Source of the DNA: Longimicrobiales bacterium
GTDB lineage: Bacteria > Gemmatimonadota > Gemmatimonadetes > Longimicrobiales > Gaopeijiaceae
Length of the DNA stretch: 64,000 nt
Assembly (NCBI GenBank): GCA_965249725.1
Contig: CBDFMQ010000001.1
Span: 128,001-192,000, forward strand
Direction: 5' to 3'
Shown here: piece after piece, positions 18,167-52,729 of the stretch
Position numbering within the stretch: the stretch's first letter is position 1
Layout of the letters: each line of letters starts with the position of its first letter
The notes under the pieces: generated by a model
Told to the model about the DNA's origin: nothing
Database searches by the model: none
What the model saw: the letters and a program-made list of their open reading frames with translations, nothing else
Position numbers and translations under genes: made by a program

Positions 18167-18574
18167 CTACTCGACCAGAACCGTGCCCCTCATGAAGGGG
18201 TGGGGCGCACAGTGGTAGGGGAACGATCCTGTCTCGCCGAATTGGAACGTGAAGGAGTCACCGATTCCGAGGAGGGGGGCATCCCATACTTCGGAGTCCG
18301 AGACCGAGTTGTGCAAATCGGTCTCGGGGGGCTCGCAGTAGACCCACGTAACGCTGCTACCCCGCGGTACCCGGATTTCGGCCGGGACGAAGGCGAAATC
18401 AACGATCTGCACGATGGTCGTGTTGATTCCCACGACGCCCGGCGCCAGCGGAAGCGAGCAGTCGGCGGTCACGCCGACAATCGGATCATCGCGGTCCGAA
18501 AAGCACGATAGCATTGCCACGACAGAAAGAACCGCCGAGACTGCGATGACGCGCCTGACAGTGTTCGGCCTCAT
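18167..18574 (-). CDS. Amicyanin/plastocyanin-like blue copper lipoprotein
   Basis: Real start at 18574 (ATGA overlap with upstream stop); lipobox-like MLSC; type-1 Cu ligands LHNSV...YHCAPHPFMRGTVLVE. Confidence 0.85.
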   Translation of the reverse strand: MRPNTVRRVIAVSAVLSVVAMLSCFSDRDDPIVGVTADCSLPLAPGVVGINTTIVQIVDFAFVPAEIRVPRGSSVTWVYCEPPETDLHNSVSDSEVWDAPLLGIGDSFTFQFGETGSFPYHCAPHPFMRGTVLVE

Positions 18575-19635
18575 GGTGTTTCTCCTTCGACGATGACGAC
18601 GCCGGTCATCTCCGGGTGCGGCACACAGAAGAACGGGAACTCCCCAGGCGTGTCGAAGGTGTACCCCCAGGACTCGCCGGGCGGTAGGAGAGGTGAGCCC
18701 CAGACGGATGTGGTGGACGTGCTCGTGTGCGCGACCACATCGCGGTTCACCCAGACGACGCGCGAGCCCACCGGGATCGAGATGCGCTCCATTCCAAACT
18801 CCAAGTCCTGGATGATGACGTACACGGTGTTCTGCTCGATCCCGGTCGCTGCGACGTCGGTGTCCGATTCCGTCGAACCTCGGGGCAGGAATCGGCTCAC
18901 GGTCAACGGGATTGTGAACTCGAACCCCCACCGCGTTCCGGAGCCCCCACGCGACGCCCCCTGCAGGGTCGACGTGTTCGTATTCGTCAACTGAATCGAA
19001 AGGGTATGGGGCGTATAGGGCACGGCGACTTGCACGGCTCTTCCCCACGCGACCTTCTCGGAGTCGGTCCGGTCCATCAAGGTGGTGACGTCCCCGGCCA
19101 ACGCGACGAAGTCGTTCAGGCGCAGGACAGCGCCCCCTCCCAGCGCGACTCGGCCTTCGCCGGCGCCGTAGCCGTCACTGAACGTCCGTACTGCACCGAG
19201 TAGGCGAAGCGGGCCCGCGGGGAGGGAGAGAGAGAGTTCTGCGTCGGCGCTACGCGCGGCGTCGTTGTACGCGAACGTTACCGCCGCGTCCAACGGTCCG
19301 TCTCCCTCCGAAGTCAGCGGAGCCCACCGACCGAAGAGTTCCCACTCGTTCGGAATCCGCGAGACGAGGTCCGAATTAGACGAGTACTTCGCTCCGATCA
19401 GAGTCCGCCCCGGAAGGGAATAGCTCGTGACGAGAGTCGGAACGTTCGACACCTTCTTCGTCGGCGGTTCGCCCGATCGAAACCTGTGGAGGAAGTTGAA
19501 ATGGAGTATCTGCGGCCTGCCCACCCAGCCGCCCGACAGGTTCGGCGTCCGATCCAACACGGACTGCGCCGCGGCGATGTCTGGCAGGCTCCCCCAGAGG
19601 AGAAGCAGGCAGATGCACGACGAGAGTGACTTCAC
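18571..19635 (-). CDS. Outer-membrane beta-barrel (DUF5777-like) fused to a C-terminal cupredoxin
   Basis: Signal peptide AAA-Q; alternating amphipathic strands (HFNFLHRF, HTLSIQLTNT, WGFEFTIPL); C-terminal VAHTST...FFCVPHPEMTG type-1 Cu site. Confidence 0.7.
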   Translation of the reverse strand: MKSLSSCICLLLLWGSLPDIAAAQSVLDRTPNLSGGWVGRPQILHFNFLHRFRSGEPPTKKVSNVPTLVTSYSLPGRTLIGAKYSSNSDLVSRIPNEWELFGRWAPLTSEGDGPLDAAVTFAYNDAARSADAELSLSLPAGPLRLLGAVRTFSDGYGAGEGRVALGGGAVLRLNDFVALAGDVTTLMDRTDSEKVAWGRAVQVAVPYTPHTLSIQLTNTNTSTLQGASRGGSGTRWGFEFTIPLTVSRFLPRGSTESDTDVAATGIEQNTVYVIIQDLEFGMERISIPVGSRVVWVNRDVVAHTSTSTTSVWGSPLLPPGESWGYTFDTPGEFPFFCVPHPEMTGVVIVEGETP

Positions 19636-45224: not shown

Positions 45225-45981
45225 CTACACCATGAGATCGCCGCCGGCGATGTCATAAGCCGAGCCGGTGATGTAGCCCGCGGCGTCCGACGCGAGGAAG
45301 CAGACCAGGTCGGCGACTTCCTCCGGCTTTCCGAGGCGGTTGATCGGAAAGCCGGTACGATAGTCCTCCAGTCTCTCGGGCGTGGTGTTCTCGTGGGCCA
45401 TTTCTGTATCGATCAGGCCCGGGCACACGGCGTTCACCGTGATGCCGTGAGGCGCCAGCTCGAGGGCACACGCTCGAGTCAGACCGAGCACGCCGTGCTT
45501 GGAGGCCGTGTAGTGTGCTCCCCCCAGAGTGCTCACGGTTTTCCCGGCGGTAGAAGCCAGGTTGACGATGCGCCCGTACCCCTTGTCCGATCATCGAACT
45601 GATCGCGGCCTGGGTGCAAAAGAAGGCCCCTGTGAGGTTCACATCGAGGGTCTTTCGCCACTCCTCTTCGGAGATGTCCTCGAGGCGCGTGGGGAAGAGG
45701 ATCCCTGCGTTGTTCACGAGGATGTCTAGGTGTCCGAAGTGCTCCAGGATGTCCCGGACCATCCGACGGACCGAGTCCGACGAGGTCACGTCGGCGGGCA
45801 CGGCCAGCACGTTCGAATCGGTCTCCATGGCCGCACGCGTCGTGGCTTCTGCATCGAGGTCGTTCAGAGCGACGGACGTTCCCAGTTCGTGGAGGCGCCC
45901 GGCGATCGCTCTGCCCATGCCTCGGGCGGCTCCGGTGACCAACGCTACGCGACCGTCCAATCGACTGACTACGCCCTCCAT
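45225..45981 (-). pseudogene. SDR oxidoreductase (FabG-like) with +1 frameshift in a G4 run at 45579-45582
   Basis: TGAARGMG and NNAG lie in one frame; removing one G restores GYGRIVNLASTAGK...YTASKHG...NAVCPG. Confidence 0.82.
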
Positions 45982-46276: not shown

Positions 46277-47062
46277 ATGGCTTCTTCACCGCATGGACGC
46301 TTCGTCTGGTACGAGATGATGACGGTAGACAAGGACCCCACGACGGACTTCTACAAGAACGTCGTCGGGTGGGACTCACAGGACTGGGAAGGCTCGGATC
46401 CGGCGTACACCATGTTCACGGTTGGAGAGTCCATGAGGGCAGGCATCATGGATCTTCCGGAGGAGGCCCGAGCCGGCGGCGCTCCGCCCCATTGGCTCGG
46501 CTACGTCTCTTGTCCCGACACGGATGCGACCGTGGAGCAGGCGAAAGGCCTTGGCGGTCAGGTCCTGGTCGAGCCCATGTCGATTCCGGAGGTGGGGCGT
46601 ATGGCCGTGCTGTGTGACCCCCAGGGCGCAGTCTTCGCGGTCTTCACGGCCGAGACCGAGTCCCCTGGGCGTGAGGGCGCTCCAGAGGTCGGTGAGTTCT
46701 CGTGGCACGAGCTCACTACTTCTGACCACGAGGCCGCCTTCGAGTTCTACTCGGCGCTGTTCGGGTGGGAGAAGACCACCGCGATGGAGATGGGGGAGCA
46801 GGGCACGTATCAGATGTACGGGACCGGCGAGCGCGAGCTCGGGGGCATGTACAACCTGCACTCCGACATTCCAGCCCCACCGCACTGGCTGCTGTACGTC
46901 AGGGTTGCCGACCTGGACACGTCCATCGAAACCCTGAAGTCGTTGGGTGGCCAGGTGCTCAACGGGCCCATGGACGTACCCGACGGTGATCGGGTCGCAC
47001 AGTGCATGGACCCACAAGGCGCGGCCTTCGCGCTGCACGAGCGGGCTGGAGGCGCAGGGTAG
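46277..47062 (+). CDS. Two-domain VOC/glyoxalase protein (CFP32-like)
   Basis: Duplicated GxFxWxEL...FY...GW, PHWLxY and DPQGAxF modules. Confidence 0.9.
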   Translation: MASSPHGRFVWYEMMTVDKDPTTDFYKNVVGWDSQDWEGSDPAYTMFTVGESMRAGIMDLPEEARAGGAPPHWLGYVSCPDTDATVEQAKGLGGQVLVEPMSIPEVGRMAVLCDPQGAVFAVFTAETESPGREGAPEVGEFSWHELTTSDHEAAFEFYSALFGWEKTTAMEMGEQGTYQMYGTGERELGGMYNLHSDIPAPPHWLLYVRVADLDTSIETLKSLGGQVLNGPMDVPDGDRVAQCMDPQGAAFALHERAGGAG

Positions 47063-47126
47063 GCCCCCAACCGCTCGGCACGACCGGCCGACCCGTTGGC
47101 GAGGGCAACCTTTTCGGCGGTCGCGA

Positions 47127-47158
47127 CCCCGGCCTGGTGGGCAGCCACCAGGCCGGGG
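47127..47158. terminator. Perfect 14-bp inverted repeat between convergent genes
   Basis: CCCCGGCCTGGTGG-GCAG-CCACCAGGCCGGGG. Confidence 0.6.
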
Positions 47159-47167
47159 AGCCGGGCA

Positions 47168-47884
47168 TCAGCCTCCGAAGGTGAACTCGAGTGCCACGGG
47201 CTGATCCGCCAGTACAGTGACCCGCTGTGTCTGGGTGCCCAACGTCGGATGCCGAGCTTCGACCACGTAGTCACCCGGCGGTAGGTCCGCTAGAGAGAAT
47301 CCCCCGTCCTCGCCGGTGGTTGCCCAGAAGGGATGGTCGAGCACCAGGACTGTGGTCTCCATCCATCCATGGATGTCGCAGGCGACTCTGATCGGAAGCT
47401 CGGGATCGGCGAAGACCTTTCGGCTCTCGAGGCCCTTCAGAGGCTGACCGATATTGAAGCCCCGATTCACCTCGGGGAATGCATGAACGTTGTGCAGCGT
47501 GGCATCGCTGTTCCGGATGACCAACGTCTGGCCCGCTTGAAGCGGCAGGACCAGAGGGTCGTACATGCACCCGCTCTGATCCAGCAACACCTCTTCCCCC
47601 GGGGTCTCGTACTCTCCGCGGACGCCCTCTGTGACGTAGACGGCGACGTCGGCCAAGCCTCCGCTCGCGCCGACGCGTACGGATGACACGCTCGGAGACT
47701 CCCCACCATGCGCTTCCACGCAATAGTCGTCGCCCGTCATGTCCACCACCTCCGCCGCAGGAGGCATCCCCTCGAACCGCACCGTACCCGTCACCGCTAT
47801 CGATGACGGGGAGGCGACGCTCTGCGACCACGCGAGGCCGAGCGCTGCACCCGATATGGCCATTCCGGCCAGTAACCCTTTCAT
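47168..47884 (-). CDS. Exported cupredoxin-like protein within a carboxypeptidase-regulatory-like beta-sandwich
   Basis: Signal peptide; NSDATLHNVH and ACDIHGWM give His/Cys/His/Met type-1 Cu ligands; GGFSLADLPPGDYVVEA. Confidence 0.78.
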   Translation of the reverse strand: MKGLLAGMAISGAALGLAWSQSVASPSSIAVTGTVRFEGMPPAAEVVDMTGDDYCVEAHGGESPSVSSVRVGASGGLADVAVYVTEGVRGEYETPGEEVLLDQSGCMYDPLVLPLQAGQTLVIRNSDATLHNVHAFPEVNRGFNIGQPLKGLESRKVFADPELPIRVACDIHGWMETTVLVLDHPFWATTGEDGGFSLADLPPGDYVVEARHPTLGTQTQRVTVLADQPVALEFTFGG

Positions 47885-47886
47885 CT

Positions 47887-49014
47887 CTACCATCCTTCGA
47901 AGAATCCGCCGTCGAACCAATCCCACAGGATGTACACGATCAACTGACTGGACCGAAGGTCGGCGTCGGTCACCGGCACCCTCAGCCCGATGTTGGCGAG
48001 GACATGCTGCCGGGTGTTGAGACTCACCTGGATCTGAGGCACGATATCCCAATCCACGGGAGTGGCGTCATCCTCGAATTCCGCCGTACCGAGAACCTCG
48101 ACCATCGGGCTCCAGCTCCGCCCGAATGCTCCCTGAGTAAGGGTCCACCCGAAGGCTCCGCGCCACTTTGCTTCACGTGCCGCCTGTCCGTCGGCCGGTA
48201 GCTCGCCGATGGCCTGCAGCTGGAAGAATCCGTCTCCGGCAACGATCTGACCGTAGGCCAAGTAGCCCTCGAAGACGGTCGTACCTTTCCCCAAGCCCGT
48301 GTCTTCGTCACCCAGCGGCAACTTCACCTCGGCACCCGCGCTCACGATCGAACCGGACGAGAGGCTCGAGAAGAGATTCTGCTTGACGCCCAAGGTCACG
48401 TCCCGGATTCCGGCGTCCCAGTCGTCGCCCGCGCTCTGCTCTACCGCACCGACCGGAAGCTTGATTTCGATCTGCGTTCTAGGACCGAAGCGTTTCTCGT
48501 ATAGGAACTCGACGGTGGCGGCACCCGGATTCTCGGTGTTCATGGTGAACGTGCTGACCGCCTCGTCCTCCGGGAATGCCTTCTCGGTTACCAGCGCACG
48601 GGGAAGGTTGAGTTCGCCTCTGGGCCAGCGATCATCCGTGCACATCGTTCGGATGTAGTCCATGGCGAGCTGGATCAGGTCCTCGGAGAGGGCATCTCCG
48701 AACGCCGGCATCGTCTCCGAGAAGCCGCGGACCGGGCCTCCTTGGTGGGCCACGGCGATCCAATCTCCATCGGGTTCGCGAGACGCGAAGCTGCAATCGG
48801 TGAAGTCCGGCACTGGATCGTCGAACGATATCTCTTCCGGGTTGGGGCCGGCGCCATCCGATCCATGGCACTTGGCGCAAGCCGCCTCGTAGAGTTCTTC
48901 GGGCGTGAATTCCTGGGCCACGGCTGAGCGCGCGAAGACACCTCCCGCAAGGCAGACAACCAGGATTGCGGACCACTGAATCAACATCTTGTGCGGGCCT
49001 CCCACGTCACGCAT
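47887..49014 (-). CDS. Monoheme cytochrome c fused to an outer-membrane beta-barrel
   Basis: AAGGAG RBS; signal AVA-Q; CAKCH plus MPAF axial Met; amphipathic strands (GIRDVTLGVKQ, AGAEVKLPLG, LANIGLRVP); C-terminal aromatic residue (FFEGW). Confidence 0.8.
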   Translation of the reverse strand: MRDVGGPHKMLIQWSAILVVCLAGGVFARSAVAQEFTPEELYEAACAKCHGSDGAGPNPEEISFDDPVPDFTDCSFASREPDGDWIAVAHQGGPVRGFSETMPAFGDALSEDLIQLAMDYIRTMCTDDRWPRGELNLPRALVTEKAFPEDEAVSTFTMNTENPGAATVEFLYEKRFGPRTQIEIKLPVGAVEQSAGDDWDAGIRDVTLGVKQNLFSSLSSGSIVSAGAEVKLPLGDEDTGLGKGTTVFEGYLAYGQIVAGDGFFQLQAIGELPADGQAAREAKWRGAFGWTLTQGAFGRSWSPMVEVLGTAEFEDDATPVDWDIVPQIQVSLNTRQHVLANIGLRVPVTDADLRSSQLIVYILWDWFDGGFFEGW

Positions 49015-49319
49015 GTGCAGGCTCCTTAGAAGCTCGGGTGCTCTGGGTCGAGTTCCCGCTTGGTGTCGGTTTGGCTGCTATGTTGGTTCTGTAAAGATGA
49101 CACGGTAACCGAGCCCCGTGTTAGATCGAGAGGCGCCTGTTTCGGACGTACCCGGTGCCCGGCGAAGTCGGCCGGGCGGAGCCTCCTTAACGCTACCGGG
49201 GTCTTGGTTGTCCATTGGACACGGTATCGCGAGCTTCAGCTTCCTCAGCGGAATGCGGCCCGAGTCTCGGGGAGCCGCACGATGAGATAGCAGTGGACCG
49301 ATATGGATGACACCGCTCG

Positions 49320-49832
49320 ATGAGCACGACTCCCTCCAATAGCGATGCCGGCCCGGCACGACCGGCTCTGCCCGCCGTGGAACCATGGCGCCGCCTCGCG
49401 TTGTATCTACTCCTAGTCGGCACCGCCGGAGTGGCCGTCGAGTTGGTCTTGATGGAGCACTATGAAGATGTTTGGCAGTGGACGCCGATCGCTCTACTCG
49501 GGGGTGGACTCGTGCTTGGAGCATTGATCGTCTTTCGCCCACGCCGTATCGCTGTGCGGATGTTCCGAGGACTGATGGCCGTCTACGTGTTCTCGGCCGG
49601 CCTGGGCATCTACTTCCACCTGAAAGCGAACGTGGAGTTCGAGTTGGAACTCCGGCCGACGATGGGTGGATCCGAGTTGATCATTGAGACCCTGAAGGGA
49701 GCCATGCCCGCTTTGGCGCCCGGAGCGATGCTCCAATTGGGACTGCTCGGCTTGCTGATAGGATTCCGGCACCCGGCGTTCGCTGCGGTCGAGCCTGATA
49801 TGAAGACACCAAACACAGTGGAGAATCGATAA
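49320..49832 (+). CDS. 4-TM membrane protein with His/Glu motifs
   Basis: Four hydrophobic helices; ELVLMEHYE, YFHLKANVEFELE and PALAPG; TAATG coupling to the next gene. Confidence 0.72.
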   Translation: MSTTPSNSDAGPARPALPAVEPWRRLALYLLLVGTAGVAVELVLMEHYEDVWQWTPIALLGGGLVLGALIVFRPRRIAVRMFRGLMAVYVFSAGLGIYFHLKANVEFELELRPTMGGSELIIETLKGAMPALAPGAMLQLGLLGLLIGFRHPAFAAVEPDMKTPNTVENR

Positions 49833-50470
49833 TGTACTCACCACCTCGCACACTGATGGCCCTCGTGGTCGGAAGCCTGACCATCGTCGCGCCGGCGGCG
49901 GCCCAGGTCGGACCAAACCTGGGTCTCTTGAACCCCAACCTTGCGAGTGCCGACGAGCTCGGGACAGTCCCGGGGCTGAACGGGGAGGCCGTCGAGGCGA
50001 TCATGGACTCACGCCCGTTCCTTCGGATGAGCGACCTGCACGCCGTTGTGGCCCGATTTGCAGGGGAGGGTCAGCATGACGCCGTGTACGGCGCCATGTG
50101 GCTACCGATCGATCTCAACGACGTCACGAACGAAGAGATCTTGCTCATTCCGGGAGTCGGAGAGCGGATGCTACACGAGTTCGAGGAATACCGCCCGTAT
50201 GAGGCGCTCCTCCGATTTGACCGCGAGATCGACAAGTATGTCGATGATGCAGAACTGGCCCGCTTGGAGCAGTACGTCTACGTCCGCATTGACCTCAATT
50301 CGGCGTCCGAAGAGGACATTCTGAGCATCCCGGGCATCGGGAGCCGGATGCTACACGAGTTCGAGGAATATCGGCCTTATGTGGCGATGGCCCAGTTCCG
50401 TCGCGAGATGGCCAAGTACGTGGACGACGACGAGGTCGAGCGGATGGCACGGTATGTAGAGGTCCGTTAG
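49832..50470 (+). CDS. Secreted helix-hairpin-helix repeat protein (ComEA/PsbU-like fold, about 3 x 60 aa)
   Basis: Signal AAA-Q; repeated (I/L)(D/N)xNxxxxxE/D..IPGxG units; RMLHEFEEYRPY occurs twice. Confidence 0.78.
   Translation: MYSPPRTLMALVVGSLTIVAPAAAQVGPNLGLLNPNLASADELGTVPGLNGEAVEAIMDSRPFLRMSDLHAVVARFAGEGQHDAVYGAMWLPIDLNDVTNEEILLIPGVGERMLHEFEEYRPYEALLRFDREIDKYVDDAELARLEQYVYVRIDLNSASEEDILSIPGIGSRMLHEFEEYRPYVAMAQFRREMAKYVDDDEVERMARYVEVR
50165..50370 (+). repeat. Identical 26-nt direct repeat, 180 nt apart, inside the HhH gene
   Basis: CGGATGCTACACGAGTTCGAGGAATA at 50165-50190 and 50345-50370. Confidence 0.9.
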
Positions 50471-50548
50471 CTACCCGGTCTACTCCAGGCTTTGCTCCGC
50501 GCCGTTGGCTGAAGTAGCCTTGTGCGGCGCACTTGTCAGGAGGTCGCA

Positions 50549-51544
50549 TTGCCAAGCATCACGCTCGTCATCGCCGTCGTCAGCTTCGTCATATCCATCT
50601 ACGCATTCATTGCCACCCGAGTGGGGCGTCGTGCCAAGCTCGAGATCTTCCGCTTCGCACCCGAGGGATTAGTGGTCGACGACGACTTCGACACCCTTCA
50701 TGTGTACACGGACGCCGACTTCATCGTCACCAACCTCAGCGACAAGCCCAACACCGTCATTCGGTTGGAGGCTTCGGCCAATCTCGGGAATGGCTGGATC
50801 GACGGAGTCGTCCACGGCAAGCGGCTCGCGGAGCGGATGCGAACGCGAACCGACCATGGCGGTGCGGACGGTCAACCGAGTCATCACAACGAGATCGTGC
50901 ACGAATGGGTCGGCGCCGACGTGTGCCCCATCATGCTATCGCCGCAGGCCTCCGGCATTCCGAACCAGGGTGTCTCCCTCAGGTGGGACTTCCAGAGCAC
51001 GGTCCCGGTCGAGGCGTTTCCGAGCATTCGACTCCGCCTCGCGCTGCACGATCAGTACGGGGAGAAGCACGAGTTCGACGTGGGCAAGCGAGAGCTTCCT
51101 GACATCGAAGTGAAACGGTATCCGAAGTTCTTCGACGACGAGAGTGAGATCGGACGTCTCAAGGATCGGATTCCGGGAGAGGACATGGCGGCCCTGGTTC
51201 GAGTGGTGCACCGGCGCTACGGGGAGAACCCCTCCCAATCGACGCTCTCGGTTCGGCGTTACTATCCGTTGAAAGGGGGGAGGCAGGCCGCCGGTGTGGC
51301 TCACATGGGGCGGGACGGCTATGCGTACGACAGCTACCGGCCACGCGACTTCAAGAAACGGCTCGATGGGGGCACGGACGGCCCCTGGGAGCTAGGGACG
51401 ACAGACGGGTTCGTCATCTCCTTCAGTGCGAGGGACGGATTGCCCGACGTGCTTCACGTCAAGCTTCCGGACAGTTGGTCGCAAGACAAGATGGACGTGC
51501 CCATCCCTGAGGACTTCGCGCGGCTGTGTGCCGCGGAGGGTTAG
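50549..51544 (+). CDS. Hypothetical protein with N-terminal membrane anchor
   Basis: GGAGG then TTG at 50549; one TM; no family recognised. Confidence 0.65.
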   Translation: MPSITLVIAVVSFVISIYAFIATRVGRRAKLEIFRFAPEGLVVDDDFDTLHVYTDADFIVTNLSDKPNTVIRLEASANLGNGWIDGVVHGKRLAERMRTRTDHGGADGQPSHHNEIVHEWVGADVCPIMLSPQASGIPNQGVSLRWDFQSTVPVEAFPSIRLRLALHDQYGEKHEFDVGKRELPDIEVKRYPKFFDDESEIGRLKDRIPGEDMAALVRVVHRRYGENPSQSTLSVRRYYPLKGGRQAAGVAHMGRDGYAYDSYRPRDFKKRLDGGTDGPWELGTTDGFVISFSARDGLPDVLHVKLPDSWSQDKMDVPIPEDFARLCAAEG

Positions 51545-51565: not shown

Positions 51566-52729
51566 TCACCGCGCGCCGGCCGGCTCCATCCGATAGACCG
51601 CAGTCGGCGCACCGTCCCGATCCTCGACCGCCAGATAGATGTATCCGTCCGGTCCCTGACGGACGTCGCGGATGCGGCCCAGGCCGCTGAGCAACGTCTC
51701 CTCGACCGCGACGACCTGGCCGTTCATGGTCAGGCGAGCGAGCTGCTCACCGGCCATGCCTCCCACGAAGATGCTGCCGCGCCATGCAGGGAACTTGTCC
51801 CCCGTATAGGCCATCATGCCGGCGGTCGCGATGGACGGCACCCAGAAGTGGATCGGCGGCTGGATACCGTCGCGGTGTGTCCCCTCATGGATCCTCTCGC
51901 CGCTGCCGTAGTTCACCCCGTAGCCCACTACAGGCCATCCGTAGTTGACTCCCGGACGGATGAGGTTGAGCTCATCGCCTCCTTGCGGGCCGTGCTCGGT
52001 GGCCCAGATGTCCCCGGTCTCCGGGTGGATGATCAGCCCCTGCGGGTTGCGGTGCCCGTAGCTCCAGATCTCCGGGCGGACATTGGCCTCGCCCACGAAC
52101 GGGTTGTCGTCCGGGATGCTGCCGTCGTCGTTGATCCGGTTGATGGTCCCGTGGTTGTTCGATCGATCCTGCGCGGGATGGGCCTCGAGATCGCCCGTGG
52201 ACGGCGCTTGACGGTCTCCGACACTGATGAACAGGTGCCCTTGTCCGTCGAAGGCGAGCCGGGACCCGTAGTGTCCGCGACCTCTCGAAGCAGCCTCGAA
52301 GACTTCCTCCACGTTGCTGAGGCGGTCGTTCTCGAACGTGCCCCGAACCACGGCGGTCGTCGCACTCGAGCCGTCACCGATGGGCTTCGAATAGCTCAGG
52401 TAGAGAAGGTGGTTGGAAGCGAAGTTGGGGTGCGGCATGACATCGAGGAGTCCACCCTGGCCCTGTGCCAAGACCTCGGGCACACCGGCCACCGGCTCGA
52501 AGAGCAAGGTCCCGTTCCGGACGATGCGGAGTCGTCCGGGTCTTTCTGTCACCAGCACGTCGCCGCCGGGGAGAAACGCCATGGACCAGGGGTTCATGAA
52601 TCCATCCGCTACGGTCACGAGTTGAAAGTCGTGGAGAGCGGACCGGTGGACCGGTGACTGGCCGTGTGCGGCTGTCGAGGCCGACAGGAAAAGACCGGCA
52701 GAGACGAATGCCAACGTGATACGGGACAT
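51566..52729 (-). CDS. PQQ-dependent sugar dehydrogenase (GSDH/YliI-like), secreted
   Basis: PWSMAFLP, TERPGRL, GQGGLLDV, HYGSR, YGHRNPQG, EHGPQGGDE and GRIRDV. Confidence 0.93.
   Translation of the reverse strand: MSRITLAFVSAGLFLSASTAAHGQSPVHRSALHDFQLVTVADGFMNPWSMAFLPGGDVLVTERPGRLRIVRNGTLLFEPVAGVPEVLAQGQGGLLDVMPHPNFASNHLLYLSYSKPIGDGSSATTAVVRGTFENDRLSNVEEVFEAASRGRGHYGSRLAFDGQGHLFISVGDRQAPSTGDLEAHPAQDRSNNHGTINRINDDGSIPDDNPFVGEANVRPEIWSYGHRNPQGLIIHPETGDIWATEHGPQGGDELNLIRPGVNYGWPVVGYGVNYGSGERIHEGTHRDGIQPPIHFWVPSIATAGMMAYTGDKFPAWRGSIFVGGMAGEQLARLTMNGQVVAVEETLLSGLGRIRDVRQGPDGYIYLAVEDRDGAPTAVYRMEPAGAR

Follow-up and report, generated by a model that had tools for sequence, protein, structure and literature searches.

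The window analysed here is a 64,000-nucleotide stretch of contig CBDFMQ010000001.1 from a Longimicrobiales bacterium (host genome, G000), and the element in question is a pair of genes on its reverse strand. The upstream gene (47887..49014, (-)) encodes P0001, a 375-residue fusion of a cytochrome c domain with a predicted 12-stranded β-barrel, recognized from its open reading frame (ORF), Pfam matches, an AlphaFold2 model and the structural matches of that model. The downstream gene (47168..47884, (-)) encodes P0002, an exported two-domain protein of 238 residues which, from its reading frame, ligand conservation and model, is a predicted type-1 copper protein. Across the wider family, fusion loci with the copper gene are outnumbered by those with a neighbouring pentaheme cytochrome gene. 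The fusion family is real and widespread, an apparently undescribed variation on the cytochrome-porin idea, and the reading developed below, to which we give a probability of about 0.45, is that P0001 would act as an oxidase gate for a small solute, similar to Cyc2 but built independently of it.

The fusion gene is present in one copy in the host genome and carries the ribosome-binding site AAGGAG (49022..49027, (-)) 7 nt 5' of its ATG. The ATG of the P0002 gene lies at 47884, 2 nt past the TAG of the fusion gene, and translational coupling of the two genes appears likely because the GAAGGA ribosome site of the second (47893..47898, (-)) sits inside the end of the first, within its last codons. 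An exported protein with His/Cys/His/Met ligands at this distance had been proposed from the letters alone (the sequence-only reading) and was confirmed, the ligands being H131, C169, H172 and M175 and the model having a type-1 fold. A scan of 46800-49500 for promoters and terminators returned 0 and 0 sites, the same as for shuffled sequences, and the G+C content of the two-gene region (0.62-0.65) was similar to that of the remainder of the window.

The cytochrome-barrel fusion and its relatives

Residues 1-33 of P0001 (48916..49014, (-)) form a predicted Sec signal peptide with a hydrophobic stretch and an A-x-A end; the signal peptides of both proteins were identified by eye, and the region in P0001 was modelled as a helix over residues 7-23. 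It is followed by a class I cytochrome c domain (residues 37-125; 48640..48906, (-)) supported by Pfam (residues 37-121, E 2e-8), a Protein Data Bank (PDB) match and conservation. The heme motif CAKCH corresponds to C46/C49/H50 and MPAF supplies M102, which together with the helical fold gives the N-terminal CxxCH and C-terminal axial Met of a class I cytochrome c, and the presence of a signal peptide and such a domain in one polypeptide was thus borne out. Conservation, weighted over 157 full-length homologs from the 269 proteins examined, was 100% for C46, C49 and H50, 97% for M102, 90% for C74 and 93% for C125, and a disulfide between C74 and C125 is likely. A single CxxCH was found in each of the 157 homologs. 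The PDB sequence search with P0001 matched the cytochrome domain only, NCBIfam gave no family name for P0001 or P0002, and a protein atlas has several clusters of the fusion family under generic cytochrome c names.

The remainder of P0001 had been described as about 250 residues of strands ending in Trp. The terminal Trp stood (W375, with a C-terminal Trp in 137/157 full-length homologs), but the rest was resolved into three parts: a 25-residue plug or linker (residues 126-150; 48565..48639, (-)) defined by conservation and superposition, a 215-residue predicted outer-membrane barrel of the FapF/COG4313 (MetA_deg) superfamily (residues 151-365; 47920..48564, (-)), and a conserved aromatic tail of 10 residues (366-375; 47890..47919, (-)) after the last strand, which is predicted to be periplasmic. 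The AlphaFold2 model, built on a homolog alignment (predicted local distance difference test, pLDDT, 90.5; predicted template modelling score, pTM, 0.85), contained the helical cytochrome domain, a mostly coil linker and twelve strands. Its top Foldseek matches were FapF and the COG4313 channel Pput2725, so that the structure prediction proposed for the C-terminal part gave a barrel matching closed 12-stranded ones. The MetA_deg profile, also proposed as a check, scored above its cutoff (Phenol_MetA_deg, PF13557, residues 178-344, E 7.5e-5, 23.3 bits against 22), and over 119 fusion homologs Pfam found the cytochrome in 119 and MetA_deg in 75 (E<=1e-3). In VIA comparisons residues 136-366 of P0001 aligned with residues 93-406 of FapF (5O65; Z 21.0, root-mean-square deviation 2.5, 219 aligned) and residues 142-366 with residues 2-268 of Pput2725 (4RL8; Z 20.1, 2.8, 217 aligned); weaker matches were KdgM/NanC (Z 16-17) and autotransporters (Z about 15).

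The linker of P0001 superposes on the periplasmic plugs of both best matches, residue 136 falling on FapF 93 and residue 142 on Pput2725 2, and the available text of the respective papers describes the N-terminal segments of FapF (PMC5557850) and Pput2725 (PMC4493636) as plugs entering from the periplasm. Where aligned, cytochrome residues 73 and 81 fall on the N-terminal ends of other barrels (4/50 VIA rows). From the model we infer that the heme domain would be periplasmic, docked beneath a plugged barrel. The cytochrome could instead be threaded to the outside like an autotransporter passenger and trade electrons with minerals or cells, since 12-stranded autotransporter barrels are among the structural neighbours; we see only a slim chance of this, as re-entrant plugs are the better match to the linker (Z 20-21), no helix spans the pore in the model, a surface heme would be out of reach of a periplasmic partner without a heme chain, and in one contig a reading frame, P0391, joins a pentaheme to the C-terminal, periplasmic end of the barrel.

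The plug is the most conserved segment of P0001 (mean top-residue frequency 0.80 over residues 130-151). The predicted periplasmic turns and tail were conserved at 0.59 against 0.40 for the outer loops, which also vary more in length than the turns, and lumen-facing residues, assigned approximately by hydrophobic alternation, at 0.60 against 0.46 for lipid-facing ones. Conserved Glu/Asp are numerous in the inferred lumen, where Met, His and Cys are conserved at no position. Three fusion homologs (L129, L130 and L147; genomes G245, G314 and G246) have long insertions near residues 193-200, in predicted outer loop 2. A copper-import channel, which would have been one sense of the metal conduit first suggested for this locus, was dropped in view of the missing lumen Met, His and Cys, a Z of only 12.1 for PcoB, and the lack of an adjacent copper partner in most fusion members.

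A conserved plug and periplasmic face, with C125 directly preceding the plug, would suit a redox-gated or redox-assisted uptake channel, in which a nutrient, whether aromatic, lipid-like or a chelated metal, is taken in through the barrel. The heme domain, which the likely C74-C125 disulfide would fasten to the plug linker, would then gate the plug or alter the redox state of the solute for uptake, and in either case the partner would merely reset the heme. Known COG4313 members are described as uptake channels in the text available (PMC4493636), and the periplasmic domain of FapF as regulating its plug (PMC5557850, likewise in part). However, the surroundings of the pair in 80 loci show no recurring gene for transport, catabolism or regulation, and a pentaheme of 550 residues would seem costly just to reset a sensor, and we regard an uptake role as rather unlikely. 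The closed plug predicted here and the poorly conserved outer loops are also consistent with a barrel that serves mainly as an anchor, keeping a periplasmic carrier on the inside of the outer membrane to react there with lipid-soluble or periplasmic redox compounds, in which case nothing need cross the pore; lateral access from the bilayer is proposed for COG4313 in the accessible part of the same source (PMC4493636). A lipid anchor would be cheaper, though (the respiratory cupredoxin paralogs described below have lipobox-like N-termini), and the conservation and many Glu/Asp of the lumen also speak against a mere anchor, which we think improbable.

So far as their available text goes, the reviews mention no fused cytochrome-porin other than Cyc2, which serves as a marker of microbial iron oxidation. 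Its hallmarks, according to the part of PMC8406198 at hand, are an AXPXFAR[Q/K][T/Y] motif before CxxCH, a PXL motif just after it, and a 16-stranded porin. The first motif was found in 0/157 full-length fusion homologs (PxFAR anywhere in 1/157) and the PXL motif after CxxCH in 0/157, and the fusion barrel has 12 strands in the model, with 12-stranded top matches; what is shared is the single CxxCH N-terminal to a predicted outer-membrane barrel. No Cyc2-named NCBIfam match was obtained for 119 fusion members, the presence of a Cyc2 model in NCBIfam being uncertain. Judged by these motifs and the modelled strands, the P0001 family is not Cyc2 and the likeness is architectural, and the independence from Cyc2 suggested by the sequence-only reading held up.

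With Cyc2/Cyt572 the fusion has in common one polypeptide with a signal peptide, one CxxCH, a C-terminal outer-membrane barrel and a predicted periplasmic heme, and with the best-known Cyc2 case, that of rusticyanin in Acidithiobacillus, a blue-copper partner upstream of an aa3 oxidase (PMC8406198 and PMC13741234, as far as available). It differs in barrel type (FapF/COG4313 with 12 strands against OprO/P type with 16), in having a full class I domain and a separate plug where Cyc2 has a short cytochrome plug, in its highly conserved barrel (poorly conserved in Cyc2), in its partner (an amicyanin-like two-domain cupredoxin or a pentaheme against rusticyanin), and in that no known iron oxidiser was seen among its hosts. 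The portions of PMC13741234, PMC5566968, PMC10654088, PMC9040806 and 10.64898/2026.01.22.701106 that were available name only Cyc2/Cyt572 as fused cytochrome-porins. No description of the present fusion was found in the literature searched, with subscription papers and supplements largely outside reach, and in this sense the proposal of an undescribed system stood.

The COG4313/PF13557 channels (Pput2725, SphA, TcpY) and FapF resemble the fusion in their 12-stranded barrel, their periplasmic plug at the N-terminus and the P-T-G loop that follows strand 5. They are about 12% identical to the fusion barrel, lack its conserved C-terminal tail and have no heme domain, their roles being uptake or amyloid secretion, and no conserved catabolic or amyloid neighbour was found in the 80 fusion loci. 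In the multiheme conduits (MtrAB, MtoAB, Pcc) a heme chain spans a large barrel, whereas P0001 has one heme and a plugged 12-strand barrel. Because its sole heme would lie beneath the plug on the periplasmic side, P0001 is unlikely to be an electron wire across the outer membrane, and the word conduit used in the sequence-only reading had to be given up, as one such heme cannot span the membrane.

The copper protein and its pentaheme counterpart

The four ligands of P0002 lie in a cupredoxin domain (about residues 97-183; 47336..47596, (-)) delimited by homolog conservation and structural matches. Over 120 homologs H131, C169, H172, C55 and C106 were invariant and M175 was kept in at least 90%; a C55-C106 disulfide is likely. 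The model (pLDDT 92.5) matched amicyanin, plastocyanin and pseudoazurin, and it is this cupredoxin fold, together with the His/Cys/His/Met ligands, on which the prediction of a type-1 copper protein is based. A profile search with P0002 found amicyanin (E 0.004), and a PDB sequence search gave no significant match. Although P0002 shares the fold and the H...C-x2-H-x2-M ligand set with amicyanin and plastocyanin-type cupredoxins, its cupredoxin is inserted into a CarboxypepD_reg-type sandwich with a conserved Cys pair, and no full-length solved relative was found by the sequence and profile searches. The MauL-like group belongs among its closest known counterparts as well. Proteins of the P0002 family are often labelled carboxypeptidase-like or TonB-dependent receptor in databases. 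Elsewhere in the window (18167-19048, (-)) another blue-copper protein is encoded, with a C-terminal plastocyanin/azurin domain (E 8e-9).

Five paralogs of P0002 are present in the host genome. One, 44% identical to P0002, is encoded between cytochrome c genes and coxB-coxA-coxC, and another heads a similar bd-like/cytochrome c operon, the gene labels (coxBAC, bd-like, cytochrome c) being read from translations. Operons that combine a cupredoxin paralog with c-type cytochromes and a bd-like membrane subunit were located at C1:249318-258700 (-) and C1:617481-623840 (+), the former running on into coxBAC. A second cupredoxin copy was found in 13/13 genomes with a linked cupredoxin, and it sits between a diheme cytochrome and coxB-coxA in all three genomes checked (G000, G100, G258); the respiratory paralogs have lipobox-like N-termini. 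The C-x2-H-x2-M loop was kept in 27/27 linked cupredoxins and in 11 of the 12 acidobacterial linked cupredoxins added to them, L221 having Q for M.

Homologs of P0001 made up 5534 of 7996 scored candidates, and at E 0.001 the fusion family comprised 2118 representatives at 50% identity, many of them partial. Among the best 80 of 562 matches, titled loci belonged to Gemmatimonadota, Acidobacteriota, Balneolota, Rhodothermota, Myxococcota and Pseudomonadota, and the closest titled relative came from a Longimicrobiales genome (81% identity). The fusion was present in 77/401 genomes of the host's phylum and, at E 1e-20, in 61/381 genomes of the phylum of G401, about 10 of which match the protein partly. 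G401 itself carries two fusion and cupredoxin pairs in one genome (C9; L178 and L186).

In the first 80 fusion loci the adjacent gene encoded a pentaheme cytochrome in 63, a cupredoxin in 14 and neither in 3. All distinct loci fetched and de-duplicated (182, with flanks of 1.5-7 kb and including 20 acidobacterial loci hand-picked as divergent) gave 127, 33 and 22, with both in 0; the adjacent partner, where present, was always a redox protein of one kind or the other. The pairing with a cupredoxin first noticed in the window therefore recurs, but as the rarer of two alternatives. Within the 401 genomes, 44 of the 46 which encode this pentaheme also have the fusion. The cupredoxin family was found in 32/33 fusion genomes without the pentaheme, 8/44 with it and 100/324 fusion-negative genomes, and 76/77 fusion genomes therefore hold one of the two carriers. 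Of the 33, 13 have the cupredoxin gene linked to the fusion, and the other 20 carry a short divergent fusion, a form which had no linked partner in 12 loci examined. No pentaheme partner was found in the host genome; a pentaheme-type pair occurs in the cultured Fodinibius sediminis DSM 21194.

The pentaheme partner is related to T. tepidum c552 (E 1.3e-4), whose family includes ExtKL/MccSep, PtdA and cable-bacterium PHC according to the available text of 10.1101/2025.11.18.688581, PMC11976967 and 10.1101/2023.11.21.568154. No Cys outside the heme motifs was present in 79 of 87 near-full-length pentahemes (of 108 found), and no conserved extra Cys column was seen. The systems containing relatives of this majority partner (Geobacter ExtI with ExtKL/MccSep, marine PtdAB, T. 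tepidum c552 (5ZE8) and cable-bacterium PHC) resemble the fusion loci in that the pentaheme is encoded beside an outer-membrane barrel, as in the porin-linked pentaheme family. Unlike the fusion barrel, the porins of ExtKL/MccSep and PtdAB are not described as heme-bearing in the portions of the sources at hand, the heme-ligating Cys and Sec/Cys of MccSep are absent from the fusion-linked pentahemes, and the operon in the window uses a copper protein instead of a pentaheme.

Since ExtKL/MccSep and PtdA are both encoded near porins, as far as the sources go, this kinship would allow a unit that works in the reductive direction, like the Geobacter cluster of a porin with pentaheme ExtKL/MccSep, and reduces a small external acceptor (a ferric chelate, oxyanion, polysulfide or quinone) with electrons from the partner. 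The catalytic Cys/Sec of MccSep is missing, however, and a cupredoxin paralog adjoins terminal oxidase genes; moreover, His/Met hemes and type-1 copper are usually of positive potential, and we consider such a direction of the whole unit quite improbable.

In a search for longer fusions, 3 of 7995 candidates (P0390, P0391, P0392) were obtained, none of which fuses the cupredoxin. P0390 was rejected as an N-terminal overcall and P0392 because it looks frameshifted. P0391 (832 aa, one contig) is a single ORF joining the cytochrome-barrel to hemes 2-5 of the pentaheme, and either a true deletion-fusion or an artefact of assembly could account for it. Among the closest relatives of the heme domain that stand alone (4 loci fetched) are small acidobacterial cytochromes encoded next to octaheme cytochrome genes. 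The protein atlas also contains a fusion of cytochrome c with DUF5777 (50 members, mostly Acidobacteriota where known), which is possibly another cytochrome-barrel.

First trees placed 23/24 and 12/13 cupredoxin-paired fusions in one nested clade, and a single nested switch to copper was not rejected by the approximately unbiased (AU) test (p 0.87). A single switch was nevertheless set aside when deep-branching acidobacterial fusions were also found paired with cupredoxins; at least three subclades are represented among the linked cupredoxins. One cupredoxin/pentaheme split of the fusion tree was also not rejected (p-AU 0.59, 61 rows, with 12 unpartnered rows and L199 omitted). Repeated recruitment of cupredoxins and an old copper pairing would both fit the sequences.

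A possible route from the outer membrane to oxygen

In the oxidase-gate reading, a small solute from outside would enter the acidic barrel and be oxidised at its inner end by the one-heme cytochrome, the heme electron would be handed to P0002, and P0002 would pass it towards an aa3-type oxygen reductase. The chain would thus run through outer funnel, plug, His/Met heme, type-1 copper and oxidase, on the model of the Cyc2-rusticyanin-aa3 chain (PMC13741234, in the part available). No Cyc2 motif occurs in the host genome, and just two of its ORFs contain at least three heme motifs; as the genome lacks large multiheme proteins, no multiheme wire would be involved, and a chain of parts like that of Cyc2, rusticyanin and aa3 in the absence of both argues for small-solute oxidation. 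Electron transfer between P0001 and P0002 is, in our judgement, very probable. The oxidative direction of the unit is probable, and the solute probably reaches the heme through or against the plug. Leading guesses for the substrate are a dissolved metal ion (Fe2+ or Mn2+) and a reduced phenolic or quinol compound.

A number of observations count against this reading. Both partners are net acidic (mean -9.1 for the cytochrome domain over 24 rows and -12.9 for the cupredoxin over 27), which would be a poor fit to simple electrostatic docking. The most conserved part of the fusion is the plug, and plugs of the FapF/COG4313 superfamily close the pore; by standard tunnelling theory, the distance to the heme may be too great for a donor held above the plug. 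An acidic outer cavity is likewise present in Pput2725, which is thought, in the text available, to carry hydrophobic molecules (PMC4493636), so the acidic cavity is no pointer to metals. The only solved relative of the pentaheme is described as low-potential in the portion of the source at hand, which fits reduction as well. There was no sign of lithotrophy in the hosts and no conserved metabolic neighbour in the 80 loci, and 22/182 fusion loci had no partner in the flank fetched. Finally, the genome counts are kin-structured (10 of the 13 linked-cupredoxin genomes are of one genus, although the 20 with the divergent form span eight genus codes), and kinship inflates the association and overstates the Fisher p.

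We tentatively extend the oxidase-gate reading to the family, while holding the extended form to be doubtful: in it, a COG4313-type channel would have become a redox enzyme whose periplasmic acceptor can be exchanged (blue copper in some loci, five hemes in others), giving rise to cytochrome-porins for a second time, independently of Cyc2, and feeding aerobic respiration from dissolved Fe(II), Mn(II) or reduced humic/phenolic compounds. If true, this would be a lithoheterotrophic route in common soil, sediment and animal-associated heterotrophs of the Gemmatimonadota, Acidobacteriota, Balneolota, Rhodothermota and others, missed by Cyc2/Mto marker searches. A second family with a different barrel would show that the design evolved twice, and its frequency in the two abundant environmental phyla (77/401 and 61/381 genomes) would mean that heterotrophs do more redox chemistry at the outer membrane than has been counted. 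With only two genes, the unit lends itself to testing, Cyc2 having already been expressed in E. coli, and it would link a two-domain cupredoxin that is abundant but mislabelled to electron transfer in respiration.

Neighbouring genes in the window

Two loosely linked accessory genes lie beside the pair on the forward strand. The first (49320..49832, (+)) encodes a 170-residue membrane protein without a Pfam match, whose two conserved His lie close to the face predicted to be periplasmic, and the second (49832..50470, (+)) its partner, an exported helix-hairpin-helix protein with an internal repeat. The two genes, for which no family name was found, were adjacent in 19/20 fetched loci. This module was present in 70/401 genomes, 48 of the 70 lacking the fusion, and is thus not obligatory; it stands beside the fusion in about 10/150 loci, at varying positions in two phyla. 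At L151:4634-4756 a relic piece of the fusion heme domain lies just upstream of the 170-residue gene, and the full gene is absent from that genome.

A pyrroloquinoline quinone (PQQ) glucose/sorbosone dehydrogenase is encoded at 51566-52729 (-) of the window (E 3e-130), and homologs of it follow the accessory module in L142, L150, L151 and L152. Between the two lies an ORF of 340 residues (50522-51544, (+)) that neither Pfam nor NCBIfam matched and for which 150 loci yielded no homolog. A link to the neighbouring glyoxalase gene was rejected, this gene occurring in only 1/149 other loci, that of the closest relative. On the other side of the pair, a short-chain dehydrogenase (45225-45981, (-)) is split over two frames by what would be a frameshift or a sequencing error, and is whole in the closest relative (L001:9676-10554).

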